DNA from: Burkholderiales bacterium
Lineage (GTDB): Bacteria; Pseudomonadota; Gammaproteobacteria; Burkholderiales; Burkholderiaceae_C
Direction: 5' to 3'
Assembly (NCBI GenBank): GCA_038326025.1
Contig: JBBQJP010000021.1
Location: 5,440-69,439 of the forward strand
Length of the DNA: 64,000 bases
In this document: piece by piece, positions 29,087 to 62,595 of the stretch
How positions within the stretch are numbered: the first letter of the stretch is position 1
Layout: every line of letters begins with the position of its first letter
The notes under the pieces: generated by a model
Databases searched by the model: none
What the model was told of the DNA's origin: nothing
Seen by the model: the letters and a program-made list of their open reading frames with translations, nothing else
Translations under genes and position numbers: made by a program

Positions 29087-29888
29087 GGAGTCTCCTTTGT
29101 TCCAATTGACCAGCCTGAACCTCAACGGCATCCGCTCCGCCACCAGCAAAGGACTTGAATCCTGGCTGGTAAAAACCAGGCCCGATTGTATTTGCGTGCA
29201 GGAAGTCAAAGCGCAAGCATCTGACATATCCGGTAAGTTTGAGCAACTCGCCGGGTTGGACGGTCATTTCCACTTTGCCGAGAAGAAGGGATATTCCGGT
29301 GTCGGCGTCTACACCCGCAAAGAACCCAGCGACGTAGTGGTCGGTTTTGGCGCGCCGGAATTCGACGCCGAAGGCCGATATGTCGAATTGCGCTTCGATA
29401 CGCCCGCCCGCAAACTGTCGATCATCAGCTGCTACTTCCCCAGCGGTTCGTCCGGCGAGGAGCGCCAGTTGGCAAAATTCCGTTTTCTGGATCTTCTCTA
29501 TCTTTACCTGGACAAGCTCAAGAAAAAGCGCGAACTGATCCTGTGCGGCGACGTCAACATTGCGCACAAGGAAATCGACCTGAAAAATTGGAAAAGCAAC
29601 CAGAAGAACTCCGGCTTCACGCCCGAGGAACGCGCCTGGATGACCAAGTTTCTCGATCAGGCGAAGATGGTCGACGTCTACCGCCAGCTGCATCCCGAAA
29701 CGACTGGCGAGGCCTATACCTGGTGGAGCAACCGCGGCCAGGCGTATGCAAACAACGTCGGGTGGCGGCTGGACTACCACCTGGCGACGCCCGGCCTTGC
29801 GGCATTGGCAAGACGGGCGTCGATCTACAAGGACGAGAAGTTTTCGGATCATGCGCCGCTGACGATCAAGTACGACTTCAGGCTTTGA
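29085..29888 (+). CDS. xthA: exodeoxyribonuclease III
   Basis: ORF 29067..29888. TSLNLNGIRSA N-terminal motif and C-terminal SDHAPL catalytic His motif. Exact start is uncertain (ATG 29085, or TTG 29097 five nt after GGAG). Confidence 0.9.
   Translation: MESPLFQLTSLNLNGIRSATSKGLESWLVKTRPDCICVQEVKAQASDISGKFEQLAGLDGHFHFAEKKGYSGVGVYTRKEPSDVVVGFGAPEFDAEGRYVELRFDTPARKLSIISCYFPSGSSGEERQLAKFRFLDLLYLYLDKLKKKRELILCGDVNIAHKEIDLKNWKSNQKNSGFTPEERAWMTKFLDQAKMVDVYRQLHPETTGEAYTWWSNRGQAYANNVGWRLDYHLATPGLAALARRASIYKDEKFSDHAPLTIKYDFRL
29774..29888 (+). repeat. xthA 3'-terminal 115-bp repeat, copy 0 (in the intact gene; attL-like)
   Basis: CTACCACCTGG...TGA encoding YHLATPGLAALARRASIYKDEKFSDHAPLTIKYDFRL-stop. 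Four further direct copies lie downstream. Confidence 0.9.
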
Positions 29889-30337
29889 GTTTGCGTTTCG
29901 AGGGCAGGGGTTGTTTAGGTCTATGCGATACCTGCCCGCACGACACCGAGGTACGACGCATGGCGCAGGCTTGAGGGCAGGTGTTGGACAAATCTAAACA
30001 GCAGCGACATCAACGGGCCTGCAGGCGGTGTCGACAAACGCTTCAGTGTAGAGACCTCGTGCGCGGGAGCACCCCCGTGGCCGTCAGTGGCAGGTCCCAT
30101 CCGTGGCAAGACCCGGTCGCGGCGGTGGCATCCCGCATACGGCAGCGGGTCGTTTTGCAACTGCACCGAGCAGCGGTCATGGACCACCAACCCAGGGCAT
30201 CTGTCGCGGGCGCCGGATCACCACGCCGCTTGCGGCTCGATTAGCTAGCGCTCGCGGCCACCCACCACGTCCCCAAGGAGTAGCGTTTCGTCTGCCCTGG
30301 CTCTTCATCACGACGCCAACACCGAAAGCACTCTTCC

Positions 30338-30832
30338 ATGCGCAGCTACCCCCACAACAGCCCCGAAGCCGCTGCACGCATCGTCGCGCTGGTTCTCATC
30401 TCCGACGGTTATGTGTGCAGCTCAAAGTTCGACATCCTCAGGCAGATGGGTGCCGAGCGTGAGCTCGGTCTGGAGCCCTATCTCCTGCCGCACATCGTTC
30501 ACATGGTGTGCGAAGAACTGCTGCTGGGTGGGTACGAGACAGGTTGGCTCATGGGCAACGTCGATGACAGCGCCTTGGCGTCATTGATGGCCGAAATCTC
30601 AGATCCTGCGCCGCAGAGGACTGTCTTGCGTCTGTCCTTGGCCGCCGCGCGAGCAGACGGCCACCTGGCCGACGGCGAAGCCATTGTCATGGAGGCCGCC
30701 CGGCACCATTGGCAGCTGTTCGATGGTGCGAAGTCGAGCCTGCTGGCGACACGCCGCCACGCCGCTTGGCCGAATCCGCTCAAGCGCATTCAGGGGCGCG
30801 CTGCAGCCACCACCTGCAGCACCAGCGGGTGA
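30338..30832 (+). CDS. TerB-like domain protein (tentative)
   Basis: 164 aa. MRSYPHNSPEAAARIVALVLISDGYV...AAARADGHLADGEAIVME shows the two ADG-x-E repeats typical of TerB-like folds. Paralog at 61588..61998. Confidence 0.5.
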   Translation: MRSYPHNSPEAAARIVALVLISDGYVCSSKFDILRQMGAERELGLEPYLLPHIVHMVCEELLLGGYETGWLMGNVDDSALASLMAEISDPAPQRTVLRLSLAAARADGHLADGEAIVMEAARHHWQLFDGAKSSLLATRRHAAWPNPLKRIQGRAAATTCSTSG

Positions 30833-31671
30833 TGCTGCCCGCGGCGCGAGCGAATGGCGTGGATCTCTTCTCGCACACCGTCGCAAGGACCCAAAAGTCG
30901 CAGGCCTCGTATCAGCGCCACGTCCGCTGCGCCAAAGCGGCTAACCGGAAACACGCCAAGGCCTCGGGCAGCGAATACGGCAAGCAAAGCACTGTCCTCG
31001 AACTCTCCGACGATGTGCGGCCGCAGTCCCTGCGCATCGAACCAGCGGTCCAGACGGGGCCGAAGCGCCGAGTGTCCCGTAGGAAGCAGCACGGGCAGTC
31101 TTGCCAGCGACTGCGGAAACCCCGCCACTGCGGCCTTGTGCACCAGGGCCGAGGGCCCGTACCAGTCGACCGGCGACTCGACCAGCCGTTCACTCGTCAA
31201 GCGCAGATTCGGGTTGTGGGGTGCAGGTTGGCCCGCCAAAACCAGATCCAGATGATGCAGCGCCAGTTCAGCCAGCAGTTGCTCGAACTCGCCCTCATGG
31301 CAGAGCAGCCGCAGCGTCGGCGTCGCTAAGACCGGCGACAGCAGCGCGTGCGCCGCCAGCTTTGAGATTCCGTCGGACAGTCCAACTGCCAAGCGTGCGA
31401 CTTTGCCACTGGCGGCCTCGCGAACCTCTTCCGGAATGAGCTGCCCCAGCTGATAAATCTCTTCAGCCCGAGCAAAGGCGGCCTGGCCCGCCTCGGTCAT
31501 TGCAACGCCGCGGCCAGCCGGCTTGAGCAACTGGTGGCCCAACGCCTTCTCGAGTTCCCGGACCTGCGCGCTAATGGTCTGGACCGCCATGCCCAGCCGT
31601 TCAGCCGCTCGGGCGAAGCCGCCTTCTTTGGTGACGACCCAGAAATAGTAAAGATGGCGGTAGTTGAGCAT
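30790..31671 (-). CDS. LysR-family transcriptional regulator (NhaR-like)
   Basis: ORF 30790..31677. ATG at 31671 (MLNYRHLYYFWVVTKEGGFARAAERLGMAVQTISAQVRELE), an NhaR-type wHTH. Confidence 0.85.
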   Translation of the reverse strand: MLNYRHLYYFWVVTKEGGFARAAERLGMAVQTISAQVRELEKALGHQLLKPAGRGVAMTEAGQAAFARAEEIYQLGQLIPEEVREAASGKVARLAVGLSDGISKLAAHALLSPVLATPTLRLLCHEGEFEQLLAELALHHLDLVLAGQPAPHNPNLRLTSERLVESPVDWYGPSALVHKAAVAGFPQSLARLPVLLPTGHSALRPRLDRWFDAQGLRPHIVGEFEDSALLAVFAARGLGVFPVSRFGAADVALIRGLRLLGPCDGVREEIHAIRSRRGQHHPLVLQVVAAARP

Positions 31672-31783
31672 GACCACTCCACATCGGAAAAGACGAAGTA
31701 CGAGTCTTGCTGGTACTGGTTTATTCGAATCTCAAAAAGGGTAAGACTAGCATCCTTTCCTATTCACTAAAGAGGCATCGACC

Positions 31784-32200
31784 ATGTTCTACGCACTCAG
31801 CTGGTTTGTCGTGCTCGGAGTTCTGGCGCTTTGGTCGATGGGAGCCTGGGCGTTTCATGCCGTTGCCGTGTGGGCAGTCTCGAATGCCGGCTCGTTGTCA
31901 GGCGCTGCATCGGGTATTGCGGGCCTTCGTCTGCCTGATTGGCTGGCCCCCTGGGTGCCGCCGGAGTTGGTGCAGGCAGTAACTTCACTGCTTTCAGGCT
32001 TGGCGCCGGTTGTCGAGGGCCTGCTTCAGGCCGTGCCGGCCCTGGCTGGCGGTCTGAGCGTGGCGACCTGGGTGATCTGGGGCCTCGGCAGCGTACTGCT
32101 TATTCTGGTGGGTGCGGGACTGCACCTGCTCATTGCGATGGGGCGCCGTCGCGGTGGCGGCGGCACCGGTACCCAGCTGCGGCCGCCGGCGGCCGCATGA
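31784..32200 (+). CDS. hypothetical small membrane protein
   Basis: 138 aa, 3-4 hydrophobic spans. Divergent from the LysR gene. No recognisable family. Confidence 0.45.
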   Translation: MFYALSWFVVLGVLALWSMGAWAFHAVAVWAVSNAGSLSGAASGIAGLRLPDWLAPWVPPELVQAVTSLLSGLAPVVEGLLQAVPALAGGLSVATWVIWGLGSVLLILVGAGLHLLIAMGRRRGGGGTGTQLRPPAAA

Positions 32201-32402
32201 CGGGCAGCCGCGACCACGGGGCAGCACGCGAGTTGGGCCTTGTGACGGCCCCGCGGGCGGGACAGCTGCGCCCGGCGATACTGCGCCGAGTTCCTCCGCG
32301 CCCGCGTATGACGGTGAAACTGGCACTCAAGCCGACTGTTGCGTGTCCCAGTTGGCGTTGCTGTCTGCGTCGGGCAGATTTTCATCGCTGCAGTGCCCGA
32401 TC

Positions 32403-33485
32403 ATGAACATACTCATTTTTCTTGGTGGTCTGATGCTGCTGGTCATCGGGGCCAACGTGCTCGTTCGCGGCGCGTCCAAACTGGCCCTGTCGTTCGGCAT
32501 CAGCCCGCTCGTCGTCGGGCTCACCATCGTCGCTCTTGGCACCAGCGCGCCCGAGATCGCAGTGAGTGTCGGTGCCGTGCTCGACGGCAAGACCGACATC
32601 GCCATCGGCAACGTGATGGGCAGCAACATCTTCAATGTGCTGTTCATCCTGGGTCTCAGCGCGCTGATCGCGCCGCTGGTTGTCAACATCCAGCTGATCC
32701 GGCAGGAAGTGCCGATCATGATCGGTGCCAGCCTGCTGCTGCTGGCGCTGGGGCTGGACGGTCGACTGTCGTTCTTCGACGGTGGAATTCTCTTTGTGCT
32801 GCTCGTGTCGTACACGGTGTTCCTCGTCGTGCAGTCGCGCCGCGAAACACAGGCCGCCAAGGATGAGTACGCGCAAGAGATCCAGCCGGCCGAAGCAGGC
32901 GCTTGGGACGACCGGCTGCCCGTACAGCTGCTGCTCATCGGTGCCGGCCTGGCGGCTCTGGTCTTCGGGTCCGAGTACCTGGTGCAGGCCTCAGTGCACT
33001 TCGCCAGGGCGTTGGGCGTGAGCGACCTGATCATCGGCCTGACCGTCGTTGCCGCTGGTACGAGCATGCCCGAAGTCGCCACCAGCATCACCGCCGCCAT
33101 CAAGGGCGAGCGCGACATCGCGGTGGGGAACGTGGTCGGCAGCAACACCTTCAACATCCTCGGCTGCCTGGGCTTGTCGGGCCTGGTGTCGGGTGACCTC
33201 GGCCTTGCCATGGCGCCGTCGCTGCTGGCCTTCGATATCTGGGTCATGCTGGCCGTGGCGCTGGCTTGCCTGCCGGTTTTCATCACAGGCCGAGAGATTG
33301 CGCGCTGGGAAGGCGGCGTCTTTCTTGGGTACTACGTCGCGTACGTGACTTACCTGATCCTGGCCGCGCAGCAGCACGACGCTCTGCAGGCCTTCTCTGC
33401 CGTGATGCTCGGCTTCGTCGTGCCGCTGACCGTGGTGACACTGGTGGTGGTGATCCGCCGTACGGCCGCGGCCGGCGCGCCGTGA
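32403..33485 (+). CDS. calcium/sodium (CaCA family, YrbG-like) antiporter
   Basis: ORF 32112..33485. ATG at 32403 (MNILIFLGGLMLLVIGANVLVRGA). Two alpha-repeats: GLTIVALGTSAPE...GNVMGSNIFN and GLTVVAAGTSMPE...GNVVGSNTFN. Confidence 0.85.
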   Translation: MNILIFLGGLMLLVIGANVLVRGASKLALSFGISPLVVGLTIVALGTSAPEIAVSVGAVLDGKTDIAIGNVMGSNIFNVLFILGLSALIAPLVVNIQLIRQEVPIMIGASLLLLALGLDGRLSFFDGGILFVLLVSYTVFLVVQSRRETQAAKDEYAQEIQPAEAGAWDDRLPVQLLLIGAGLAALVFGSEYLVQASVHFARALGVSDLIIGLTVVAAGTSMPEVATSITAAIKGERDIAVGNVVGSNTFNILGCLGLSGLVSGDLGLAMAPSLLAFDIWVMLAVALACLPVFITGREIARWEGGVFLGYYVAYVTYLILAAQQHDALQAFSAVMLGFVVPLTVVTLVVVIRRTAAAGAP

Positions 33486-33902
33486 GTCGATGAGCGCCCC
33501 CGACAGACTGCTCGATCCCATCCGTGCCTTGCAGGCAGGCGATGGAGAGGGGTGCCCATCGCGACGTAGCAGCTGGACCGCCAAGCGCACACCCAACTCG
33601 CCGGTGAACGACCGATCCACATCGCCGCCGCGGCCGGTAGCGTTTTCGTGCCGCTTTGCAAAATGCGCGGGCAGCCCGATCTCGTCGAGGCAACATGAGA
33701 GAGTCCATCGTGCAGCGGCTGCGCGAGGCGGCTGCGACCTTGCCTTCGGAGCGGGTGTCTGTGCACGCCCTGGGGCTGTCGGAGGCGAGGCTGGCGAAGG
33801 TGGGGCTGGCGATCGGCGTCACCGCAGGCGTGATGCCGATGGCATGGGCCTGGGGCAGTGAGTGGCTCCTGGGCTGGCTTTCAATATGAACGGAATTCTC
33901 AA

Positions 33903-50227: not shown

Positions 50228-50253
50228 GGCGGATCCTTGGTCTTCGGTGAGGC

Positions 50254-51300: not shown

Positions 51301-51314
51301 GGGCGGGCCTCCAG

Positions 51315-52253
51315 TCAGGCAGCCGCCGTGCCGATGGCGTCACCAGCGCAGTCCTGCGCGATGCGCACCGACAGGCTGCCCCATTCCTGGCCCTGTCCGT
51401 CGACCAGCGCGGCCACATGGCGACCGGGAGCGGATTGTTCGCACAGGGCCAGTCGCACATGCACATGGCCTGGCTCGCTGTACACGACCACATCGCCGGG
51501 ACCGGCGGCGCCGGCTCCCTCGCACGACCATTTGGCGTGCAGCGCAGCAAGGTCGGCACCCGGCTCCAGCGACACCGCCATCTCGGCCGGCTGACGTGCA
51601 ACGCATTCGACCGTGATCTTGGCACGCGGACCCGTCGCGCTGGCGGGCGCTGCAGGCGACGCTGCAGATGGGGCTGCAGACGTCGCCGCAGATGCCGCTT
51701 CGGTGGCACCGGCCGGCGCGCCCGGCGCGGATGGCCAGCCGGCGGCCTGTCCCGCCATCGGGGCCATCGGGGCCAGGCTATCGGCCCAGGCGCGCAACAA
51801 CAGCACCCACGGCACGGCCATCGACGACGCGGCCTGTCCCAGCGGACCCGCCAGGTTCTGCGCCCACGCGCCGGCCGCGTCGGCGGCAAATCCGGGGTTG
51901 GCATATCCGGGGCCGGCAGATCCGAAGCCAGGCGGCGAAAAACGCTGCGCCGCTTCCTGGCCACGGCGCATGTACTCGTCGATCACCTGATAGGCGGTGT
52001 TGACGCCGCGCTCGACAAAACCCTGCATCGTGGCCTCGGCCGCGCCGCTCATGGCGCGACTGGTATCCAGGCTCTGGCGTACCGCAGCGCCCATACCCGA
52101 CCCCAGCGCCGCGCCGAGCGCTCCGTTCAAGGCCGCGCCCATCGAGGGTGGCAGGCCCAGCGGCGGGCGCCGCTCCGGCGCCTGCCGATGCGGTGCGGGA
52201 CGCCGGACGCGGGTACTGTCGTCGGCTTCGGTTTCAGCTTCATTCATCGGCAA
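51315..52253 (-). CDS. hypothetical protein (Ala/Gly/Pro-rich middle, small C-terminal beta-type domain)
   Basis: 312-aa ORF filling the gap between flanking operon genes on the same strand. No family recognised. Confidence 0.45.
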   Translation of the reverse strand: MPMNEAETEADDSTRVRRPAPHRQAPERRPPLGLPPSMGAALNGALGAALGSGMGAAVRQSLDTSRAMSGAAEATMQGFVERGVNTAYQVIDEYMRRGQEAAQRFSPPGFGSAGPGYANPGFAADAAGAWAQNLAGPLGQAASSMAVPWVLLLRAWADSLAPMAPMAGQAAGWPSAPGAPAGATEAASAATSAAPSAASPAAPASATGPRAKITVECVARQPAEMAVSLEPGADLAALHAKWSCEGAGAAGPGDVVVYSEPGHVHVRLALCEQSAPGRHVAALVDGQGQEWGSLSVRIAQDCAGDAIGTAAA

Positions 52254-52315
52254 TCCTCTGATGGGCCATGTGAAATGGAATCGTGTCGTACGCGGTCAAT
52301 GGACGGCCCTGCGTA

Positions 52316-54484
52316 TCATGGATGGTCGTAGCCCACGATGTCTTCGAGCGCCGGCAGGCGCGAGATCGCGTGTGCCGCCAGGCGCCCCGAGATCACTGCC
52401 GACTCGATGCAGCCGGTGTCCAGGCCGGTGGCGGTCCAGTCGCCGGCGATGGTCAGGTTGTCGAACGACATGTCCAGCGGTGACAGGCGGTAGGCCGGGC
52501 TGCCGGGAAGCGACAGCACATAGCGGTCGCTGGCATTGACATTGGCCGTCCAGTACTGGCTGTCGAAGGCGCGTTCGTCGGCCGCGGTGCGGCCGGCGTC
52601 GACGCTTGCGTCGGCCGCCACCAGCAGCTCCCACCGAAAACCGCCGTGCGCATGCCGGGCCTGGGGCCAGAGTGCGCTGACATCGCGGTCCAGAAAATGC
52701 ACCGCATTGGCCCGCACCTGCTGGTGCTGCTGCTGGTGGAACTGGCGGCCATCGGTACCGGCCCGGTCCACATCCGGCAGGACACTGCAGAAATAGGCAA
52801 TCGACTTCACCGGTTCGGCCAGGCATTCCTCGGGGATCAGGTGGCGCATGTCGGCCCAGGTGTCGAAGGGCTCGACGAAGCCCGACAGGTTGACCGCCGG
52901 ATGCGGCCAGCCCAGCGTGACCATGTCCTCGCGCATCCATACCTGAAAGGCCTGGGTCGGCACAGTCTTCACATAACTGACCATGTCGCGCCAGCGCGGC
53001 TCGCGCGCGATCAGTTCGCCGGCCACCTGCGGCAGTGCGCCGACGCTGACGCCCAGCACGACCAGGTCGAAATCGCGCGCCACGTCCATGCGCACGCTGC
53101 GCACCCGGCGCAGGTCCCAGTCGGCCTCGAAGGCTCGGCCCTCGGCGCGCAGCGCGTCGCCGTCCTGCAGTTGCGCATAGTCGGGCTGCGACGGCCAGCA
53201 TGACACGCCCTGCACATCGACCAGGGGCTGATAGGGCCGTCCGTCCAGCACCTCGGCCTGCAGGTCGAAATGCATGGACTGCACGTGCGGCACCACGCCC
53301 GCACGGGCGGGCGACACCGACAGGTCGCGCAGGCGATGGAAAAAGGAAAACTTGACGCCGCGCGCGCGCAGCACCTGGTACAGCGGCGCGAACACCACGT
53401 CGCCCATGCCCGCGCTCATGCTGTAGAACAGTGCGCCGCGGTAAGTGAAGAACATGCGCATCGCGCCGCGCAGCGCCACGCCCGCAGCCAGCCGCGGGCG
53501 CTCGACGTCGCCATCCTCGAAGGCGAATGCCAGGTCGTAGATGCCGCGCATGAAGCCCGACTGCAAGGAGGCCTCGGACGCGCCATTGGCGCGCAGCCAG
53601 TCGCGCCAGTCATGCGCGTTGATCGCGTCGAAGCCGCGCGGATCGAAGGCCAGCCCCTGCAACGTGGCGCCGCGCAGGATGGCCAGGATCAGGTCGATCA
53701 CCTGCCAAATGCGGCGCAGCTCCACATCCTCGGCAACCAGCATCTCGATGCGCTGGCGCGCAGCGCCTGCCAGCGACTCGATCACTTGCAACAGCGCCGC
53801 GCTGCCCTCACGCAGCATCTGCGGCACCCAGGCATCGACGGCCTGCAGCAGCATTTCACTGGCCTGGGCAATCGCGGCCGCGCCGGACAGGTGGCCATAA
53901 CGCAGCACGGTCTCGACGGCCGCACCGGCCGCCTGCGGTCCGCTGCGCGTCCCCGTCCCGTCAGGTGGCGCAGGCGCGGGTTGCGGCCGCTCCCGTGCGC
54001 CGGCCGAACGCACCAATTCGGTCACCAGCAGCGCCGACTGCTTCAGATAGGCCACTACCGTGAACGGGCTGCCCTGGCTGGCGGGATCGCCCGGCTCGCC
54101 AGCTCCCGGTGGAAAATGCGCGCGCCAGAAGCTCCAGTCATCGCCCATGCGATCGGCCACCGCCACATCGGCCGCCGGCTTGAACGCGTCGCGCCAGTCC
54201 TGGAAGCGCTGCTCCGGGTGCAGCGCCTGCCGCTCGGCATAACAGGCGCGCATCAGCGCAAATGCGTTCTCGTAGAAACCCATCCACAGGTGCAGGCCGT
54301 GTTCCTCGATGCGCTGCGATGCGCCCCGCCCCGAGGCGCCCTTGCCGCCGAGCCGCCAGCCCAGCTGGTAGACCGTGATGTCATAGCGCCCGCCGTGCTC
54401 GGGGCGGCTCAGTTCGAAGGCGGTGGTCAGGCTCGCGCATCCGCCACCGACCACCGCGACCCGAATCGGCTCGTCGCCGCTCAT
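52316..54484 (-). CDS. FAD-dependent oxidoreductase, phytoene-desaturase/amine-oxidase superfamily (HpnE/COG3349-like, enlarged)
   Basis: 722 aa. N-terminal RVAVVGGGCASLTTAFELS dinucleotide fold and C-terminal LTIAGDWTATGLDTGCIESAVISGRLAA. 4-bp overlap with ispH. Confidence 0.8.
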   Translation of the reverse strand: MSGDEPIRVAVVGGGCASLTTAFELSRPEHGGRYDITVYQLGWRLGGKGASGRGASQRIEEHGLHLWMGFYENAFALMRACYAERQALHPEQRFQDWRDAFKPAADVAVADRMGDDWSFWRAHFPPGAGEPGDPASQGSPFTVVAYLKQSALLVTELVRSAGARERPQPAPAPPDGTGTRSGPQAAGAAVETVLRYGHLSGAAAIAQASEMLLQAVDAWVPQMLREGSAALLQVIESLAGAARQRIEMLVAEDVELRRIWQVIDLILAILRGATLQGLAFDPRGFDAINAHDWRDWLRANGASEASLQSGFMRGIYDLAFAFEDGDVERPRLAAGVALRGAMRMFFTYRGALFYSMSAGMGDVVFAPLYQVLRARGVKFSFFHRLRDLSVSPARAGVVPHVQSMHFDLQAEVLDGRPYQPLVDVQGVSCWPSQPDYAQLQDGDALRAEGRAFEADWDLRRVRSVRMDVARDFDLVVLGVSVGALPQVAGELIAREPRWRDMVSYVKTVPTQAFQVWMREDMVTLGWPHPAVNLSGFVEPFDTWADMRHLIPEECLAEPVKSIAYFCSVLPDVDRAGTDGRQFHQQQHQQVRANAVHFLDRDVSALWPQARHAHGGFRWELLVAADASVDAGRTAADERAFDSQYWTANVNASDRYVLSLPGSPAYRLSPLDMSFDNLTIAGDWTATGLDTGCIESAVISGRLAAHAISRLPALEDIVGYDHP

Positions 54485-55494
54485 CCACGCCCCCCGACCT
54501 GCCGGCCATCGTTGATGGCTGAGCCCGGGGTTGCCAGCGTGTCAGGGGCCGGCTGACCGTCTTGGCGAAGTGGGCGGGGCAGGTTGAACACGATTTGTTC
54601 GGCCTTGCCGAAATTCTCGACATCGCTGCCCGGCCACCAGTCGCACAACTGGTCGACGACTCCCTCGACCAGCGTCTCGGGCACCGATGCGCCCGATGTC
54701 AGGCCGACCACATCGCAGCCTTCGAGCCAGTCGCGCTGCAGGTCGGCGGCCGACGCGACCCGATGCGCCGGCCGCCCGCATTGTCCGACGAGTTCGAGCA
54801 GGCGCATGGTGTTGGAACTATGCGCCGCACCCACCACCAGCACCACCTGCGAACGCCCGGCCAGTTCGCGTGCGGCAATCTGGCGGTTTTGAGTGGCGTA
54901 ACAGATGTCGTCCTGCCGGGGCCCCAGGATGGCCGGGAAGCGGCGCTGGAGCACGCTCAGGATGCGCGCGGTGTCGTCCACCGACAAGGTGGTCTGCGTC
55001 GCATAGGCCAGCTTGTCGGGGTTGCGCACGGTCACAGTCAGCGCCTCCTGCTCGGTGGAGATCAGGTGGATCTGCGCATCGCCCTGCCCCGTGAAATGGC
55101 CCAGCGTTCCGTCGATTTCGGCGTGGCCGGCGTGGCCGACCAGGATCACGCTGCGACCGGCCCGGCCATGGCGCGCGACTTCCTGGTGCACCTTGGTCAC
55201 CAGCGGACAGGTGGCATCGATCGCGCGCAGCCCGAGCAAACGGGCCTGCTCCGTCACGTCGCGCGACACGCCGTGCGCGCTGAAGATGACCCGGGCGTTG
55301 GCGGGCACATCTGCCAGTTCCTCGACAAACCGCGCGCCGCGCGCGCGCAGCCGGTCGACGACGTGGCGGTTGTGCACGATCTCGTGGCGCACGTAGACCG
55401 GCTGGCCAAACGCATCGAGGGCACGCTCGACAATCTGAACCGCGCGTTCGACGCCGGCGCAAAACCCGCGTGGATTGGCGATCACGATGTGCAT
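54481..55494 (-). CDS. ispH: 4-hydroxy-3-methylbut-2-enyl diphosphate reductase
   Basis: ORF 54481..55554. ATG at 55494 (MHIVIANPRGFCAGVERAVQIVERAL...VRHEIVHN...DATCPLVTKVH). Confidence 0.9.
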   Translation of the reverse strand: MHIVIANPRGFCAGVERAVQIVERALDAFGQPVYVRHEIVHNRHVVDRLRARGARFVEELADVPANARVIFSAHGVSRDVTEQARLLGLRAIDATCPLVTKVHQEVARHGRAGRSVILVGHAGHAEIDGTLGHFTGQGDAQIHLISTEQEALTVTVRNPDKLAYATQTTLSVDDTARILSVLQRRFPAILGPRQDDICYATQNRQIAARELAGRSQVVLVVGAAHSSNTMRLLELVGQCGRPAHRVASAADLQRDWLEGCDVVGLTSGASVPETLVEGVVDQLCDWWPGSDVENFGKAEQIVFNLPRPLRQDGQPAPDTLATPGSAINDGRQVGGRG

Positions 55495-56048
55495 GAAAGA
55501 ATCACCTCCCGACTTCGCTGTCATCTGCATGCAAGCAGCGCAGGCCACCGGCATGACTGGCGCGGCAAGCGAACGCCGGCGCGACCGGATCCTACGATCA
55601 ACTCTAACACGCGGTCAACGAATTCAGGGGGAGCAAAGCACCAACGCATGCGCCGCAAGATCGCTGCATCGTCGGAATCGCCATCGCCATCGCCGTCGCT
55701 GGCCGTACGCAATGGATCGATCGGCCATCCGAACCAGGACTTGTCTGCATCGCCATCTGCAGCAACAGACAACCATGGCATCCGGATCAGGATGCCCGTT
55801 CGCGGGTTACCGCCAGGCACGGGCCGGCGCCACGGCCACCGCGATCTTGGGACCGGTGTCGCGCCACAACCGCCGCATCCCTGGCAGCCCGGAATGCTTC
55901 TTGTCAAAGGTCGCGAGCGGCCCAGGTCGAGAACGATAAGCTGTTGCCGCCCTATCCCACGGCATACCAGACGCTCTGGGCCTGGTCGGGAACTTGCGTG
56001 CGATGGCATCGGTGAGCAGCTTGAGGTGCACCGGGTCCTGCGCAGCAT

Positions 56049-56163
56049 CTACCACCTGGCGACACCAGGGCTGGCGGCATTGGCCAAGCGGGCGTCGATC
56101 TACAAGGACGAGAAGTTCTCCGACCACGCGCCGCTGACGATCGCATATGACGTAAAGCTTTGA
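56049..56163 (+). repeat. xthA 3'-terminal 115-bp repeat, copy 3 (orphan gene end)
   Basis: Encodes YHLATPGLAALAKRASIYKDEKFSDHAPLTIAYDVKL-stop. Same boundaries as the other copies. Confidence 0.9.
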
Positions 56164-56283
56164 CGACAGGCCGGTTCGACCCATGTTCGGATACGACCTC
56201 TTCGCTCTGTCGTGGACCACCCGATGTCGGTGGAGCAATGGAGGGCGATCCGTACCGACCTGGCACGCACGATCCGCATGGAC

Positions 56284-56730
56284 CTACAGTGGCAGAGCGG
56301 CCGCGCCGGCCAGGCAACTGATGCTGGCCACCAGTGTTAGCCTGAGGCGCATCGGCAGCCAGCCGCGCAGCCGACAGCGCGGATACAGCACGCTATCCAC
56401 TGCAAAACACGCCCATAACAACGCCGCCATCAACAACAACCCGGGCGCCTGACCCAGCAGCAGGGCCGCCCAGCCAAGCAGGCCGGGCACCACGCCCCAG
56501 AGCAGAGACGTCACGGGCGGGGAAGGCCACTCGCGCATCGCCAGGCCCCAGTGCAGGGCCCCCAAGAAGCTGACGATGCTCGTCCCCTAACCTAGCAAGG
56601 CCAGGCTGACCAACGGTGCGTCACCGGGCCTTGCCACCCAAAGCACGGCTGCCAGGCCCACGCACGGAATCAATCCGCCGAAGCCCAGTCGGCTGGCCCA
56701 AGGCGACGGGCCAGTCCTGTCCGCTGTCAT
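56284..56730 (-). pseudogene. DUF3429-family membrane protein gene interrupted by one in-frame TAG
   Basis: ORFs 56587..56847 (from ATG 56730) and 56284..56565 are in the same frame. Reading across gives ...SLALLG-TAG-GTSIVSFLGALHWGLAMRE, where the family normally has a sense codon (Tyr-like position). Confidence 0.6.
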
Positions 56731-56906
56731 CGGTTTGCGTCCTCGTCCTCGGGTTCCGGCTCGGGCTCGAGTGCCTTCACTTCCGACGGGTTGCCCGCGG
56801 CGTGGAAACCCATGTCTTCGCCATTCCACTGCTGGCCACACCAGCAACGGCCGCCGGTGTCGATGATGCAGGTGCCGCTGCCGCAGCAGCGAGGGTCTTG
56901 GCTCAT
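56727..56906 (-). CDS. cysteine-rich CWC-family small protein
   Basis: 59 aa, below the track cutoff, own translation: MSQDPRCCGSGTCIIDTGGRCWCGQQWNGEDMGFHAAGNPSEVKALEPEPEPEDEDANR. ATGA overlap with the downstream DUF3429 start. Confidence 0.6.
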   Translation of the reverse strand: MSQDPRCCGSGTCIIDTGGRCWCGQQWNGEDMGFHAAGNPSEVKALEPEPEPEDEDANR

Positions 56907-57009
56907 TCGTAACTCCTGGAGATCATTTCAAGCCGATTCACGAGTGGCCATGCAGTGGTGAAGCCGCCGTCCACTGCAATCGCCGGCTCCGTCGGCGAAG
57001 GGGTTGCGA

Positions 57010-57441
57010 TCAGCGGGGCGCGCCATTGCCGGGTTTCGGGCGGCAGGGGCCAGGCCGATCCTGGCGCAAGGCCCAACGCTGCAACGCCGGACGCCAGCGC
57101 AGGAAAAGGCGGTAGGTGCGCTCCATGGCCCAGGTCGCACCCGGCAGCCGCCCGGCCCAGGCCAGCCAGCGCCAGCCGGGCAGCGCGGCCCAAAGCGCCA
57201 GAAACGCCTGCGCGCCGCTGAGCAATTCACCTTCGCGACTTCGCACGTGGAATCGCGCCAGCAATTGCGCGCGTGTAGTGCCAGGTGGCAGCGGCAGTTC
57301 GGCGTCGTTGACGTCGGCATAACACACCGGCCTGTGCGGCTGCAAGCCGCGATAGACGCCAATCTCACGCCGGCAAAGCGGGCACGCGCCGTCATACAGA
57401 ACGGTCAGGGGCGGCACTTCGTCGACGGGTTCAGTCAACAT
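57010..57441 (-). CDS. thiol-disulfide oxidoreductase DCC family (DUF393)
   Basis: 143 aa. LYDGACPLCRREI motif near the N-terminus. Confidence 0.8.
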   Translation of the reverse strand: MLTEPVDEVPPLTVLYDGACPLCRREIGVYRGLQPHRPVCYADVNDAELPLPPGTTRAQLLARFHVRSREGELLSGAQAFLALWAALPGWRWLAWAGRLPGATWAMERTYRLFLRWRPALQRWALRQDRPGPCRPKPGNGAPR

Positions 57442-57639
57442 TGCGGCACCTCATTGACCGCCGGCAAGTCGCAGAGCGTGAGAGAACCGGGCTCGAAGGC
57501 CGCGCGCGTTGGCGCAGCGCCCAAACCAAGACCACCAAAGGCCCCGCGGTTATCAGCGTCGACGAGCGCATCGAAAAAACCGAACGCCGCCGCATGAAGG
57601 TAAAGCTGGTCGACAGGCACGACGATCAATGAGCGCACA

Positions 57640-57807
57640 TCAGCCGCCTGCAAGCTTGTGGCGTCGGCAGGCATCGGAGCAGTACTTCAGCTCGGCCCAG
57701 TTCTTCGCCCAGCGCCGACGCCAGCTCATCGCAAGGCCGCAGCCCACGCAGGGCTTGCTCGGCAATGCGGCCTTGTTGCCGCGGAAACTGGCGCCAGACA
57801 GCGTCAC
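57640..57807 (-). CDS. DUF2256 small zinc-ribbon-like protein
   Basis: Tail of ORF 57640..58206. Probable GTG start at 57807. KPCVGCGLAMSWRRRWAKNWAELKYCSDACRR matches the family pattern C-x2-C...W-R-K/R-x-W...YCS-x2-CR. Confidence 0.55.
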   Translation of the reverse strand: MTLSGASFRGNKAALPSKPCVGCGLAMSWRRRWAKNWAELKYCSDACRRHKLAGG

Positions 57808-57833
57808 AACGCAGCCTGGGCCCAGCCGCGTGT

Positions 57834-58142
57834 TCACGCCTTCTTGGCCCAGGCACTGCACCAGCCCGCACCGGCCACCTGCTTGCCAGCGAACAGCGGA
57901 CAGCCGCCCGCCTTGTCGGTGGTCTTTCCCTGATAGAGAGCGCAATTTGTGCAGTTCTGGGCAGCGGTGTGTTTCGGGTACTTCTTGGTGTCGGCACGTT
58001 TGGTATCGGCGACATAACCGAGGGCGGCGGCCTGCGCGTCGGTTTCGACGACTAGGGCCTGGGCCTGCGCGCCGGTGGCAAGCGCCGCGCCGGAGGCGGC
58101 CAATGTCATGAGAAACACGCGACGGGGTAGAGGTCGTTTCAT
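57834..58142 (-). CDS. high-potential iron-sulfur protein (HiPIP), Tat-exported
   Basis: 102 aa. Tat signal RRVFLMTLAASGAALATGAQA. Cys ligand pattern CTNCALYQG...GGCPLFAGKQVAGAGWCSAW. AAGGAG RBS. Confidence 0.85.
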   Translation of the reverse strand: MKRPLPRRVFLMTLAASGAALATGAQAQALVVETDAQAAALGYVADTKRADTKKYPKHTAAQNCTNCALYQGKTTDKAGGCPLFAGKQVAGAGWCSAWAKKA

Positions 58143-58442
58143 GGGGAACTCCTTGGATGGGTGATATGAAAGGGTGATGCGTGACGTGGAAAGAGGAGCC
58201 GAACAAGTGTCAAGAGCGGGTCACGCGACCAGGCGCCGGGTGGCGCGGCAGCAGCGGCGCACGCGCATTTGCACCAACTGCAAAGCCGGCACGGCCCGCA
58301 AGATGATCGTCCGATTTCAGATTTTTGCTGGATGCCATGTGAAGGATGATACATTTTTTTGAGTCATCTTGAGTTCAATTGTATTATTTTTGCAGAGTAA
58401 GTTTTATAATACGCTTCAAATACTCTTCAAATCAGTGTCAAT

Positions 58443-59621
58443 ATGAAGAACAGCAAGCCATCGCTGCCACCAACCCGACAACCGACGGAAGTGGAGAATC
58501 CATCGTTCCTGCGCAGCGGCGCTGTTGCGCGCATGCTGCGCATGCCAGTGGCGACGCTGCGCGTCTGGGAGCGCCGCTACAGGCTGACACAGCCCGGGCT
58601 GTCGCCGAGCGGTCAGCGTCTCTACTCTGCCGACGACGTTCGGAGGCTGGTACTGCTCAAGCAGCTGACGGACCTCGGTCACGCGATAGGGAGCCTGGCG
58701 CCACTGGACATGCCGCAGCTGCAGCGCGTGGCGTCCACGCACGCGCAAGCGCGCTCAGCCACACAAAGAGTCGAGCACCCGGAGGTGGCCCAGGTGCCAC
58801 CGATTCGCGCCTGGCGGCTCGCCGTCATTGGCGCGGCGCTGGGCAGCAGGTTGCGGCGGCCGGCGCTGTTGCGCCGGCTTGGTCAGCCGGTCGTGCTGCT
58901 TGGGCCGTTCGAAGACGCAACGCAGGCCGCCGCCGCATTGCAAAGCACGGACCTGGATGCCTTGCTCGTCCACGAACCGCAGCTGCACGACGGCTGGTTG
59001 GCTTCCATCGAAGCTGCGGCGCCGGCCTTTGTGGGGGTTCCGAAAGCGGTGCTCTACGGCTTTGCTGCCGACCCCGTGTGCGACGCATTGGCAGCAGGGG
59101 GCACAGCCTTGCTGCGCGAACCGCAGCCGGATGTGGTTGTGGCGCAATGGCTGCAAAGCCTGTCCTTGGCGACCATGGCGTCGCGGCCCGCGGCGGGCAA
59201 GCCGGCGCCTTCGACCGGGCCCGTGCCGCCGCGCCGCTGGGACGATGCGGCTCTGGCCGACTTCGCGGGCCTTTCGACGACGATAGCCTGCGAGTGTCCA
59301 CGCCACGTGGCCGAGCTGCTCGTGCAGCTGTCGCACTTCGAGGCCTACAGCGCCGAGTGTGGGCACCGCAACGCAGCCGACGCCGAGCTGCACGCCTACT
59401 TGCGGCAAGTCACGGCCGCTTCGCGCGCCCGCTTCGAGGCGGCACTGGAGCATGTGGCCCTGCACGAAGGCCTGTTGTTGCCTGCATCGCCGAGGCAGAA
59501 AGACACGGCTATGGCACCAAACGCGCAGCGCGCCAAGGTCCTGGCTGCCGCGAGGCCGCGCCGTCCGCCCAGAGCCGAGGCAGAAAAAGCGCCGGATGCT
59601 GATATCGATGGCAGCCTGTGA
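58443..59621 (+). CDS. MerR-family transcriptional regulator with large C-terminal sensor region (LitR/CarH-like layout, tentative)
   Basis: 392 aa. N-terminal HTH LRSGAVARMLRMPVATLRVWERRYRL...YSADDVRRLVLLKQL. Flavodoxin-like middle domain. Cys/His-containing C-terminal helix bundle (TTIACECPRHVAELL). Confidence 0.75.
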   Translation: MKNSKPSLPPTRQPTEVENPSFLRSGAVARMLRMPVATLRVWERRYRLTQPGLSPSGQRLYSADDVRRLVLLKQLTDLGHAIGSLAPLDMPQLQRVASTHAQARSATQRVEHPEVAQVPPIRAWRLAVIGAALGSRLRRPALLRRLGQPVVLLGPFEDATQAAAALQSTDLDALLVHEPQLHDGWLASIEAAAPAFVGVPKAVLYGFAADPVCDALAAGGTALLREPQPDVVVAQWLQSLSLATMASRPAAGKPAPSTGPVPPRRWDDAALADFAGLSTTIACECPRHVAELLVQLSHFEAYSAECGHRNAADAELHAYLRQVTAASRARFEAALEHVALHEGLLLPASPRQKDTAMAPNAQRAKVLAAARPRRPPRAEAEKAPDADIDGSL

Positions 59622-59670
59622 CATCTCACCTGCCCCTGAACTACCGTACTCCTTGACCGACTCCCAGACC

Positions 59671-60276
59671 ATGCGCCATTTCCTCCTCTTTCTCACACTC
59701 GCCGCCATGCCCATGCTCAGCCACGCGATCGAAGAACCCGACTACGAGGTCATCCGGAAATTCGACAATGTGGAGTTACGCCACTATGCGCCCTACGTCG
59801 TGGCCGAGGTGGTGCTTGACACGCCGGCCGACGAAGCGGGCAGCAAGGCTTTCCCCATCCTGGCCGGCTACATCTTCGGCAAGAACAAAGGCGAGAAGAC
59901 ATTCGCGATGACGGCGCCGGTGACGCAGACCGCCGCGCCGATACGCATGGACATGACCGCTCCCGTGACCCAGGCCGCCGTGGCTGGCGGCATGCAGGTG
60001 CAGTTCGTTCTGCCCAAGGAGGTGACGCTGGCGACGGCGCCCGAGCCGATCGACCCACGCGTGCAGTTGCGCCAGGTACCCGCCGGCACCTGGGCAGTCA
60101 TCCGCTATTCGGGCACCTGGTCCCAGTCGAACTACCTCGAGCACCTGGACGCGTTGAAGGCGGCCCTGCAAGCGGCGGGTGTTGCCACGCAAGGCGAGCC
60201 CGTTTTGGCGCGCTACAACGCGCCCTTCACGCCGTGGTTCATGCGGCGCAACGAGATCTGGCTGGCATTGCGCTGA
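59671..60276 (+). CDS. SOUL heme-binding family protein, secreted
   Basis: ORF 59359..60276. ATG at 59671 (MRHFLLFLTLAAMPMLSHAIEEPDYEVIRKFDNVELRHY...AGYIFGKNKG...MTAPV). Confidence 0.8.
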   Translation: MRHFLLFLTLAAMPMLSHAIEEPDYEVIRKFDNVELRHYAPYVVAEVVLDTPADEAGSKAFPILAGYIFGKNKGEKTFAMTAPVTQTAAPIRMDMTAPVTQAAVAGGMQVQFVLPKEVTLATAPEPIDPRVQLRQVPAGTWAVIRYSGTWSQSNYLEHLDALKAALQAAGVATQGEPVLARYNAPFTPWFMRRNEIWLALR

Positions 60277-60321
60277 CTCCGCTACCGGGCATGTGCCGTG
60301 GTCACTGGCGCATAGCGGTCA

Positions 60322-60879
60322 CTACCATGCCGCGCTGCCTGGCCCGCCCTTGAACGGGCCAACCAATTCGGGCGTGATCCAGCCGCCATACAAGCCGCCG
60401 GGCTGCGGCGTGACGGCTGCGCCGTCAATACGGCAATCGAGCTCAGCCGGATAGAACGACACGCAATCGGCCAGCGCTTGGGCACCGGGCAGCGGCTGCG
60501 GGTAGCTCCAGGCAACGCGGGGCAGCCGGCGATCGACCTGCGCCAGGGTCCAGTACTGCGCCGTTCCTTTCCACTCGCAGAAAGAACTGCCGGCTGCCGG
60601 CTCCAGCAGATGCCGGGCCACGTCGGACCACGGCAGGTAGACGCTCGGCGGGTGGGCGGTCTCCAGCACGAGCACGGCGCGCCGCGTGCGCGCCACTTCG
60701 ACATCACCCCAGCGCACCACCACTTCGCGCGCATCCGACACCAGACGCGGCGGGCGCGGGAAGTCCCAGACCGACGTCTGGCCCGGCCCCGGCGCCGTGG
60801 CGAAGGGCGGGCGCACCTGGCCTTGCCAGCGCCACTGCTGGCGCGCCGCACGGATCCAGTCGGGAAGCTCGGACATCAT
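60322..60879 (-). CDS. DUF427 domain protein
   Basis: ORF 60322..60939. ATG at 60879. VWDFPRPPRL...ETAHPPSVYLPWSDV...CEWKGTAQYW family pattern. Confidence 0.7.
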   Translation of the reverse strand: MMSELPDWIRAARQQWRWQGQVRPPFATAPGPGQTSVWDFPRPPRLVSDAREVVVRWGDVEVARTRRAVLVLETAHPPSVYLPWSDVARHLLEPAAGSSFCEWKGTAQYWTLAQVDRRLPRVAWSYPQPLPGAQALADCVSFYPAELDCRIDGAAVTPQPGGLYGGWITPELVGPFKGGPGSAAW

Positions 60880-60946
60880 TTTGGCAATACGCAAGCTGGA
60901 TTGGATCGGGGGATCGGATTGCACCTCCGTTTCGAACATTGCACGA

Positions 60947-61393
60947 TCACAGTCGGGCCTGCTGTTCGAAACGGCTCTTGAATTCCTGCATCCGGGAGCG
61001 GTTTTTCCCCCAGTCGAACAAGCCGAACAACGAGCGGGACCGGAAGTCGACGCGCTGCCCCTGGGGGTCGATGCGGAAGTCGACCTGGTCCTTGAACCCT
61101 GCGGGCGTGGTGAAGATCACCTCCAGCGCCAGAGGCTCGTCGCGAACGACGGTTGCCTCGGGAAAGCTTGCGAGTGTGGCCCGCAGCATGCCCATAACCT
61201 GGGCGGGCGTGCCGGCGAACCGCAGTGGCAGCAGGTCGCCGTCGCCACGCGAGCTCACGCAATTGCTGGGCAGCGAACACGCCAGATCCGGATTGCCGGA
61301 ATCCGCAGCAGCTGTCGCAGAAGGTGTCGGCGCCGTCGCGGCACAAGCACCCAGCAGCAACGCCAATGTCAGGACCAAGAACTTGGATTTCAT
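60947..61393 (-). CDS. DUF1499-family lipoprotein
   Basis: ORF 60947..61408. ATG at 61393 (MKSKFLVLTLALLLGAC lipobox). PSNCVSS...DFRSRSLFGLFDWGKNRSRMQEF. Confidence 0.7.
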   Translation of the reverse strand: MKSKFLVLTLALLLGACAATAPTPSATAAADSGNPDLACSLPSNCVSSRGDGDLLPLRFAGTPAQVMGMLRATLASFPEATVVRDEPLALEVIFTTPAGFKDQVDFRIDPQGQRVDFRSRSLFGLFDWGKNRSRMQEFKSRFEQQARL

Positions 61394-61587
61394 TTGAACG
61401 CTTTTCAATTCAATGCCTATTCCGGCAAATCACCAGTATCGGGCGCGGGACGACACCTTGCTGGAAACAAGGTTTCAACCGAGTGCGGCGAAACCGCCCG
61501 CCAAAAACAGATGCCAACGGGCATGCCGAGGCGGCTTGGGCGATCGCCGCCATCGAAACATGCTCACCACCCGCGGCGGGGCCGACC

Positions 61588-61998
61588 TCAATCGGCTGGA
61601 CGGAAAATCTCGCGCTGCAATCCCCATTGCTCCATCGCGCTGGAAATGATGATGGACTCGGCGATGTCGACCGTGCCGTCGGAGTGCGCGATGTCGACAC
61701 ACAACCGCAGCAAGCGCTTCTGCAGTTCGGGATTGTCGATTTCGCCGACGATGTCGCGCAATGTGAACTCATCGACCGGACAGGTATTGCCCATGCTCAG
61801 TCGCGCACTCGGCGCCAGATCGTCGTATGCGTCGTGCAGCACGGTTGCCAGCGCATCACGGTCGAGTCCGAGTTGTGCGTGCACGTCGGGATGGCCGAGC
61901 AGTTCGAATTCTGCGTCGCTGATGTCTCCGTCCGCCAATACGGTCAGGGCGACGATGCGGGCAGCGGCCTGCGGGCTGTTGGTCGGGTATCTGCGCAT
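61588..61998 (-). CDS. TerB-like domain protein (tentative), paralog of 30338..30832
   Basis: ORF 61588..62163. ATG at 61998 preceded by AAGGAGAG. MRRYPTNSPQAAARIVALTVLADGDISDAEFELL...IAHSDGTVDIAESIII. Confidence 0.5.
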   Translation of the reverse strand: MRRYPTNSPQAAARIVALTVLADGDISDAEFELLGHPDVHAQLGLDRDALATVLHDAYDDLAPSARLSMGNTCPVDEFTLRDIVGEIDNPELQKRLLRLCVDIAHSDGTVDIAESIIISSAMEQWGLQREIFRPAD

Positions 61999-62299
61999 GG
62001 TTAGTCTCTCCTTGGTTGATGGTGGTTGGCTTGGTGGGCGGTCCTGCCGCAGCCTGGTCGATCCCTGGCGCATGTTGTCCGGCTGCCGAACCGGCTGCGC
62101 GAGACGGGTCCTGTCTTGGCCGCGCGCTTGCACTGCACATCCCGGACAGGCCGTCGAAGCCATGGCCCAGGCCGATCCGGATCAGCGACCGGTCGAGCGC
62201 GGCCTTGACAACGATTGCGTGCGCGCTCTGCTTCTTCGGGCCCGGCCGAGTGGGCCGGGGCTGCTACTCCCCTCGAAGAAATCGCAGTCTGGCACGAAC

Positions 62300-62425
62300 T
62301 GTGAAGGCCCCACGGCTATTGCAGAATTTGCGGCCGATGCTGTGGCTCGTCTACCCGAAGTCCAATGTGCTACCCGCGAAAGTCAGGGTCTTCATCGACT
62401 TCCTGATGGAGAAGATCGCCATCGC
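62300..62425 (+). pseudogene. orphan C-terminal remnant of a LysR-type regulator gene
   Basis: LLQNLRPMLWLVYPKSNVLPAKVRVFIDFLMEKIA is a typical LysR C-terminal tail. No N-terminal body upstream (that space is occupied by the opposite-strand TerB-like gene). Confidence 0.4.
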
Positions 62426-62480
62426 TCCAGTATGGGTCGCGCGAGGGCCTCCAGATCGTGCGGGTATTTCGTGCAAGCAA

Positions 62481-62595
62481 CTACCACCTGGCGACACCAG
62501 CCACTGCTGCACTTGCCAGACGCGTATCTATTTACAAGGACGAGCAATTTTCAGATCATGCGCCGCTGACGATCGAATACGACATGAAGCTTTGA
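62481..62595 (+). repeat. xthA 3'-terminal 115-bp repeat, copy 4 (orphan; probable ancestral gene end)
   Basis: Encodes YHLATPATAALARRVSIYKDEQFSDHAPLTIEYDMKL-stop. Followed directly by core-type genes. Confidence 0.9.

Follow-up and report, generated by a model that had tools for sequence, protein, structure and literature searches.

Why should the end of one housekeeping gene occur five times in a row on a bacterial chromosome, when only one of these ends still has a gene attached to it? This question is raised by a 64,000-nucleotide stretch of contig JBBQJP010000021.1 (assembly GCA_038326025.1, positions 5,440 to 69,439) from a Burkholderiales bacterium, which is referred to here as the window. 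Its xthA gene, encoding exodeoxyribonuclease III, is followed by four further copies of its own 3' end. The initial annotation of the window had read the array as serial integration into xthA and had found it odd that no integrase was present. The comparisons described here indicate that the array is probably a composite island of recombinase-less cassettes, similar to the staphylococcal cassette chromosome (SCC) and ψSCC islands, and that the xthA 3' end is likely to be the attachment site of an integrative family driven by a large serine recombinase (LSR).

The xthA body (29067-29773, + strand; Pfam Exo_endo_phos, E 1e-29, full-length profile) runs into copy 0 of the terminal 115 bp (29774-29888), which is the 3' end in current use. 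Orphan ends follow at 37678-37792 (copy 1), 41360-41474 (copy 2), 56049-56163 (copy 3) and 62481-62595 (copy 4, the last of the window). As had been described, all five copies lie on the + strand, are exactly 115 bp long, share the left edge CTACCA and carry the stop codon at the same position. Each encodes the peptide YHL..IYK..(K/Q)FSDHAPLT.. up to this stop. Their pairwise nucleotide identity is 70-84%, and the differences fall mostly at third codon positions (27 of the 48 variable columns). When a degenerate pattern was derived from the copies, it matched the window exactly five times, against no match expected from shuffles. The body is attached to copy 0 only, since tblastn with the body matched 29085-29774 alone in the window. 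The G+C content of xthA (29085-29888) is 56%, well below the window average of 64%, and the G+C content at third codon positions of copy 4 (0.53) is the lowest of the five (others 0.74-0.79).

Upstream of xthA lies ordinary core genome (pyrE, a Pyr_redox-AIRS fusion, gatCAB, mreBCD, PBP2 and mlaE). The nearest xthA relatives all belong to Comamonadaceae and related Burkholderiales, with protein identities of at most 80%. The best 80 related xthA loci of the genome collection served as the reference set. The pyrE-xthA synteny was kept in all 80, and 78 of them carried a single xthA end within 10 kb; L007 carries the same junction as the window and L041 (Ramlibacter monticola) a decayed one. The site is thus variable among relatives, as the initial annotation had expected, and close relatives differ exactly at the junction. 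Its proposal that core genes resume at 62597 found no support in the relatives: the genes after copy 4 (AhpC/TSA-like and DsbA-like) adjoined xthA in none of the 80 relatives in this empty-site test, and the usual downstream neighbours of xthA in relatives, an M48 peptidase and AmpG, are both missing from the window. Copy 4, the ancestral gene end according to the initial annotation, may be that or may open a further unit. Similarity to the ends of relatives, which are at most 80% identical, did not discriminate between the window copies as to ancestry.

The actual signature of the element family is a motif that had been overlooked. About 30 bp long, TGTRGGTTTTTTGYSGCA-N4 stands immediately before CTACCACCTGG (CTACCAC...) at all four orphan copies. 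Each insertion unit is counted here from its own 115-bp copy, so that copies 0 to 3 open units 1 to 4 and unit 1 spans 29774-37677, not 29889-37677; the four islands first proposed were retained and their left limits moved. The units measure 7.9, 3.7 (2.1 without an insertion sequence, IS), 14.7 and 6.4 kb, and the motif closes each of them on the right. Copies 1 and 4 are preceded by an intact motif; that of copy 2 is interrupted by the IS, and that of copy 3 is degenerate. The unit 1 motif, CATCCAGCATCCTTGTCGGTTTTTTGTGCGAGTTG (37643-37677, +), would be an attP-left half-site; it matches the junction pattern used for searching, is in register with the recombinase-linked half-sites described below and is closest to the L167 type. 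The unit 4 motif is TCGTGCGGGTATTTCGTGCAAGCAA (62456-62480, +). The left part of the unit 2 motif, TTGGGTATTTCGCG, lies at 39720-39733 (+) and its last 3 nt (CAA) at 41357-41359, beyond the IS. The degenerate unit 3 motif, GGTGCACCGGGTCCTGCGCAGCAT (56025-56048, +), has CC in place of the T-run and keeps the 3' part GCGCAGCAT.

The junction pattern (GGTWTTTYG-N9-CTACCAYYTGG) matched 62 metagenome contigs, about 41 of which continue into the true xthA-end peptide (...FSDHAP... and stop). The motif was absent beside single-ended xthA in 79 loci and was never found alone in 1.25 Mb of 81 loci, and it is therefore not native to xthA. One match at L059 was due to chance. Units bounded on both sides range from 151 bp, through 0.7-5 kb, up to 14.6 kb (unit 3 of the window). 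The 151-bp units consist of a surrogate end and a 36-nt spacer holding the motif, and they recur with different orphans. The motif is also kept across hosts whose spacers do not align. Certain orphan ends elsewhere show decay, with mutation of the catalytic Asp in L092, L112/L137 and L127 and a lost or shifted stop in L007, L041 and L103. No junction was found in phage, plasmid or viral collections.

Comparison of junction loci with one another placed the exchange at the same point (a slash marks the boundary hereafter). Left sides that are 99-100% identical are followed by orphans only 67-78% identical and by unrelated downstream DNA in L098/L113/L119 and in L111/L112, and L103/L134/L129 form a further set with a shared left side and different orphans and downstream DNA. 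Between L103 and L134, identity is 96% in the body, 90% in copy 0, 79% in the spacer, 92% in the motif and 71% in the orphan, with none beyond the orphan. Conversely, identical orphans stand behind unrelated left sides in L105/L113 and L100/L136. The first informative mismatches bracket about -3 to +7 around /CTACCAC. The breakpoints always fell within about 10 bp of CTACCAC in at least five independent right-hand comparisons, and none of the right-hand breakpoints lay inside the equally conserved FSDHAP stretch. This clustering agrees with the earlier proposal that the copies mark a site-specific recombination point in the xthA 3' end; the crossover is placed within about -3 to +7, where the exchanged dinucleotide would lie. 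The reciprocal comparisons ruled out that the motif travels with the following orphan. Because left sides and orphans are exchanged reciprocally, each junction joins the right end of one unit, the motif, to the left end of the next, the orphan, as expected for attP-left/attB-right joints.

Where the surrogate ends come from is suggested by the DNA behind xthA in other genomes. The Na/Ca exchanger of unit 1 is 72% identical (protein) to a gene lying 95 nt downstream of xthA in L065. The hydrolase-LuxR gene pair of unit 2 lies directly 3' of a single-ended xthA in L158, a locus that shares the upstream synteny of the window, and behind an orphan end in L159, where the block is 84% identical to the window. 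Likewise, the L103 orphan and the next 37 nt match the native end and downstream sequence of L059 at 78-80%, against only 68% for the xthA bodies of these two loci. The units thus appear to derive from an xthA end together with the donor's own downstream genes, which fits the third-position pattern of the copy differences. Because of this bias and of cargo that matches genes directly downstream of xthA elsewhere, the copies resemble functional gene ends from different donors. Both this view and the view that incoming DNA supplies the surrogate end had been put forward in the initial annotation, and both gained support.

A linked recombinase, which the initial annotation had suggested seeking in homologous islands, was found at five loci. 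A serine-recombinase profile detected a 568-aa LSR in L106 (Resolvase 6e-19, Recombinase 2e-10, Zn_ribbon_recom 6e-5), the only serine recombinase that this search found among the xthA-linked loci. On the opposite strand, 32 nt separate its ATG from the crossover, an interval that the motif fills exactly. The gene after the LSR is ArdC-like, and such genes are a hallmark of transferable elements. The LSR family has about 225 members in the protein collection. Four further homologues on long contigs (100, 76, 62 and 55% identity) have the same layout: the start codon, an interval of 32-33 nt occupied by the motif and, across the boundary, /CTACCACC leading into a complete xthA end. These five loci represent four lineages (L106/L163, L164/L165, L166 and L167), and the window junctions align with them in register. 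The displaced end of L163 is followed by the canonical xthA neighbours (M48 peptidase, AmpG-like MFS and response regulator), and the element side of L166 carries RepC and a DDE transposase. L167 holds an LSR (10001-11590, +), an orphan end (9857-9967, -) and, 3 kb beyond the LSR and on its strand, a complete divergent xthA (14581-15372, +) with the core TTATCAAATCGC instead of CTACCACCTGG, followed by a type I restriction-modification system. Since the motif fills the 32-33 nt gap between the LSR start and the crossover, we infer that it is the attP half-site of this family, and the LSR presumably catalyses the junction reaction. The missing integrase is thereby largely explained, in that the window itself has none and the same junction elsewhere lies 32-33 nt from an LSR gene. 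Among phage, plasmid and viral collections, no relative of the LSR exceeded 31% identity (plasmid-borne relatives), and its relatedness in the PDB is limited to the catalytic domain (3guv).

The xthA side of the reaction also has the form of a recombinase site. The attB-like site lies at the Asp-Tyr codons of WRLD/YHLA (...GGCTGGA/CTACCACCTGG), and its left half is the last ~20 nt of the body, AACGTCGGGTGGCGGCTGGA. In 79 native genes, the arms -18 to -6 and +4 to +16 are complementary at a mean of 7.9 of 13 positions, which is the highest score in the gene (background 3.5±0.9, maximum 7.2 among 699 other offsets), for an arm geometry chosen after the sequence had been seen. A palindrome at the xthA boundary is as expected for an attB, and this site may well be one.

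These observations can be combined in a mechanism. The attP of an element would consist of the half-site TGTRGGTTTTTTGYSGCA-N4 on one side and a surrogate last 115 bp of xthA on the other. Integration would join the xthA body to the surrogate end, so that the gene stays intact and the motif and old end are left at the far border. Since the surrogate mimics the native end, the body/end joint would stay attB-like and the motif/end joint would be attP-like. Later insertions could use either the gene-proximal joint or a motif joint, and each interval could leave as a circle carrying motif/end; units would thus be excised, exchanged and stacked. Most units would have lost, or never had, the recombinase. 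The window units keep only the surrogate end and the half-site and, if mobile, would need the LSR in trans. The order of the events is part of the proposal. It is also possible, though this is a tentative extension, that the system works as an integron-like gene-capture platform, in which one serine recombinase acting in trans integrates, excises and reshuffles cassettes down to 151 bp without a directionality factor and recasts the xthA end and its neighbour genes as cassettes for other species.

Several observations weigh against an LSR-driven island at xthA. Adjacency in five loci (four lineages) is the evidence that ties the motif to the LSR. Neither an LSR gene nor a remnant of one was detected in the window (E ≤ 1e-3), among the remaining 40 junction loci or among 84 reference loci; Pfam searches of all main window ORFs (open reading frames) gave no LSR, and candidate remnants beside the window motifs were noise only. 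For this organism, the evidence on the LSR is confined to the 64-kb window. The border between xthA body and surrogate end of an LSR-bearing element was not reached on any contig. By inspection, the motif side is not obviously palindromic with the xthA side, unlike a textbook LSR attP. In L167, the complete xthA is inverted relative to the orphan; the locus may represent an inversion between sites or an element carrying a whole xthA. Finally, two exchange tracts have their left limits inside the xthA body (-62 and -88), not at the core. The window units are accordingly best filed as candidate recombinase-less derivatives or dependants of LSR elements, not as complete members.

The alternative that survives best is that the units are inert fossils: LSR elements would have integrated serially and then lost their recombinase and transfer genes, with present variation arising through homologous recombination only. 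This is what the decaying orphan ends, the lack of an LSR in the window and the exchange tracts of close relatives that begin at variable positions inside the xthA body would suggest. However, the motif is conserved across hosts with unalignable spacers, and the homology of cassettes to LSR elements ends cleanly at the ~35-nt half-site, with no gene remnants. Minimal 151-bp units recur with different orphans, close relatives with 96% identical xthA differ exactly at the junction, and all five copies of the window are still intact. We regard the fossil explanation as doubtful.

More improbable is homologous recombination alone, in which the orphan serves as right arm and the xthA body as left arm after one ancient founding event. 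The comparison of L098 with L105 speaks for some recombination of this kind: the loci are 99% identical upstream of -88, 88% over -87 to -1, where all ten differences are synonymous, and 84% in copy 0. L098 and L119 share sequence up to -62. Both of these left breakpoints lie in conserved coding sequence, and no nearly invariant run in the 115 bp is longer than CTACCACCTGGC. Because of these limits within the body, it can be stated that ordinary homologous recombination also moves xthA regions. It does not account for at least five independent right-hand breakpoints within ~10 bp of the core with none in the FSDHAP stretch. Left of the core, homology between different units does not reach past ~25 nt, and therefore a crossover on that side would not be homologous. 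The conservation of the motif and its fixed position 32-33 nt from LSR genes are also left unexplained. In L119, a high-G+C xthA body turns at -62 into low-G+C sequence 100% identical to L098, and a third sequence begins at the core; this locus may be a real double recombinant or a left-side assembly chimera (1156-bp contig, coverage 2.4), and little weight is given to its left breakpoint.

It is very unlikely that a tyrosine recombinase, either of phage or integrative and conjugative element (ICE) type or a host Xer-like enzyme acting in trans as for IMEX/dif modules, built the array and that the LSR genes are coincidental cargo. Such an enzyme would suit the native site, which resembles a classic core site with 13-bp inverted arms around an 8-bp spacer, and targeting of a gene 3' end with a surrogate end is typical of tyrosine integrases. 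However, about 125 xthA-linked loci yielded no tyrosine integrase to phmmer or to a hidden Markov model of lambda, P4 and P2 Int, and the junction is absent from the phage, plasmid and viral collections. All five LSR homologues adjoin the junction with constant spacing, which would hardly be expected of cargo, and no dif-like XerD arm was seen by inspection. A tyrosine-integrase match in L095 proved to be a chance pattern match without xthA. Clustering of the ORFs around about 120 xthA ends, in which only xthA, LysR and ordinary chromosomal genes recurred, ruled out a recurrent neighbour gene as a hidden recombinase. In a batch of 110 ORFs, no integrase or transposase stood among the top 25 of 89 PHROGs families and of 107 Pfam families, a scope in which single matches could hide; a codon-bias filter had removed the L106 recombinase from this batch.

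The weakest candidate is an enzyme within the array itself. An IS110-family IS of 1.62 kb (39734-41356, +; Pfam DEDD_Tnp_IS110 and Transposase_20) occupies the right part of unit 2, and its transposase gene (40040-41269, +) had escaped the initial annotation, whose statement that the islands encode no recombinase stands for a dedicated enzyme only. Over its full length, the IS has homologous copies in many other places, six of them in Serpentinimonas raichei, and these lie in unrelated flanks. Excision of the IS with one CTAA rebuilds GGGTATTTCGCGCTAACAA/CTACC, which is identical to the copy 4 junction at 24 of 27 positions with the N9 spacing correct. Because of these unrelated flanks and of the restored motif, the IS, judged from its sequence context, entered the motif secondarily and is not the recombinase of the islands; its ends do not coincide with the island ends, nor is its target shared by its copies. 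That its bridge-RNA type recombinase inserts islands at the CT core in xthA is hardly credible, since, although the array has no other recombinase gene and this one stops 90 bp short of copy 2 and belongs to an IS ending 3 bp from a boundary that begins with CT, the IS is a discrete element whose copies elsewhere have no xthA fragment or motif in their flanks, whose removal restores normal motif and spacing, and which is absent from about 45 other junctions. The left end of the IS (39734-40039, ~300 nt, non-coding) contains, by eye, CGCTAACT, matching its own left terminus, and CCACGTTAA, matching the right terminus, and these resemble the donor guides of a bridge/seek RNA. The flanks of the six identical S. 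raichei copies (L084-L089) share nothing beyond C/TAA, an unusually loose target for the IS110 family.

The cargo of the four units was assigned by Pfam. Unit 1 carries, between 29889 and 37642 and without a recombinase, a LysR regulator (30790-31677, -), the Na/Ca exchanger (32112-33485, +), and genes for CopD-like (33858-34379, +), VTT-domain (35383-36015, -), SOUL (36179-36844, -) and fasciclin (36856-37350, -) proteins. The cargo of unit 2 (38023-39572, +) is an alpha/beta-hydrolase-LuxR fusion (38023-39093, +) and its partner, a small ORF (39234-39572, +). The same hydrolase-LuxR gene and small ORF occupy 10001-11547 of L156/L157, at a non-xthA locus beside MarR and amidase/ABC genes and with no xthA fragment, and the pair probably travels as a unit in non-xthA contexts too. 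Unit 3 (cargo 41475-56024, no recombinase) encodes a 1174-aa zinc-ribbon/adenylate-cyclase/AAA_16 protein (42390-45914, +), a polyprenyl synthetase (50254-51300, -), a 722-aa FAD oxidoreductase (52316-54484, -) and LytB/IspH (54481-55554, -), together with a 1202-aa (46790-50398, -) and a 312-aa protein (51315-52253, -) that have no clear Pfam match. A large cyclase/ATPase thus adjoins an isoprenoid-type cluster in this unit (42390-55554). Unit 4 (cargo 56164-62455, no recombinase) contains genes for DUF3429 (56284-56565, -), DCC1-like (57010-57441, -), HiPIP (57834-58142, -), MerR (58443-59621, +), SOUL (59359-60276, +), DUF427 (60322-60939, -) and TerB-like (61588-62163, -) proteins. The unit 4 SOUL gene overlaps the long ORF assigned to the MerR-type regulator. 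A SOUL haem-binding-family gene is present in both unit 1 (- strand) and unit 4 (+ strand). Outside the array, the 760-aa ORF at 25375-27657 (-) fuses pyridine nucleotide-disulphide oxidoreductase to AIR-synthase-related (SelD-like) domains and is absent from this place in the 80 related loci. The sole Rfam family matched in the window is anti-hemB (Burkholderia RNA 7; 4606-4694, -), at 57.8 bits against a gathering score of 49.5.

Among known systems, the closest parallel is found in staphylococci, where the Ccr enzymes are LSRs. Composite SCC/SCCmec islands, including recombinase-less ψSCC units, are built at the 3' end of rlmH (orfX) (bioRxiv 10.64898/2026.03.31.715619, 10.1101/336396, PMC3900703). 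Both systems combine an LSR with the 3' end of a conserved housekeeping gene that is kept intact, tandem units split by attachment repeats, many units without a recombinase and varied cargo. The window itself shows tandem units, an intact gene, attachment repeats and recombinase-less units, as in an SCC/ψSCC-type island by functional analogy. The differences are also clear: the present system belongs to another phylum, targets xthA and not rlmH, and uses a surrogate end of 115 bp against roughly 15-20 bp in SCC. It has a single LSR, 32-33 nt from the crossover, and by far the most of its units, which can be as small as 151 bp, have no recombinase. The resemblance is thus proposed as a functional analogy and not as family membership.

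Other LSRs insert in protein-coding genes, such as Bxb1 in groEL1, A118 in comK and SPβ SprA in spsM. The present family shares with these phage and ICE enzymes the Resolvase, Recombinase and zinc-ribbon domains, an attP beside int and an attB inside a conserved gene, whereas insertion of those elements usually splits the gene or brings no long surrogate end, and long arrays of recombinase-less cassettes are not known from them. Cis-mobilizable elements (CIMEs) have been described for the tyrosine-recombinase ICEs of streptococci. These elements and tandem accretion at ICE attachment sites are reviewed in PMC5704250; the units studied here are similar in being att-bounded, devoid of recombination and transfer genes and placed in tandem at the site of a potentially mobilising autonomous element, and they differ in having an LSR as the enzyme and a surrogate gene end within the units. 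In the tycheposons of Prochlorococcus, serial integration at tRNA genes is proposed to drive island growth (bioRxiv 10.1101/2020.12.28.424599). As in that system, serial integration at one site pushes older material inward, the target is partially repeated and foreign flanking DNA becomes cargo; tycheposons, in contrast, mostly target tRNA genes and mainly carry their own tyrosine recombinases, whereas here the target is protein-coding and most units have no enzyme.

Integron arrays are made up of small cassettes that lack a recombinase and have a recombination site at their end. Modular cassette exchange at an end site is common to both systems, but no IntI is adjacent here, there is no folded attC, the boundary is not GTTRRRY and the cassettes carry a fragment of the target gene. 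The upstream neighbour was pyrE in 80 of 80 loci, with no integrase. Junction folds had no consistent excess of stability, and an attC-like hairpin was rejected on z-scores that ranged inconsistently from +0.65 to -3.1.

The xthA 3' end is a probable and apparently undescribed attachment site with a cognate, likewise undescribed LSR family of about 225 members in environmental Betaproteobacteria; no paper was found that ties xthA to island integration or to a serine recombinase. Enzyme-site pairs of LSRs are sought after as genome-engineering tools, and in this family the sequence itself shows both attP and attB; the conservation of xthA extends well outside this family. The case also gives a caution for annotation, as an island array without an integrase became explicable once a conserved half-site led to complete relatives. 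Staphylococci would not be the only bacteria with SCC-like composite islands of recombinase-less cassettes, and in Comamonadaceae some of the variable DNA that lies downstream of a housekeeping gene would be built in this way, apparently by recycling the xthA-adjacent genes of other species.

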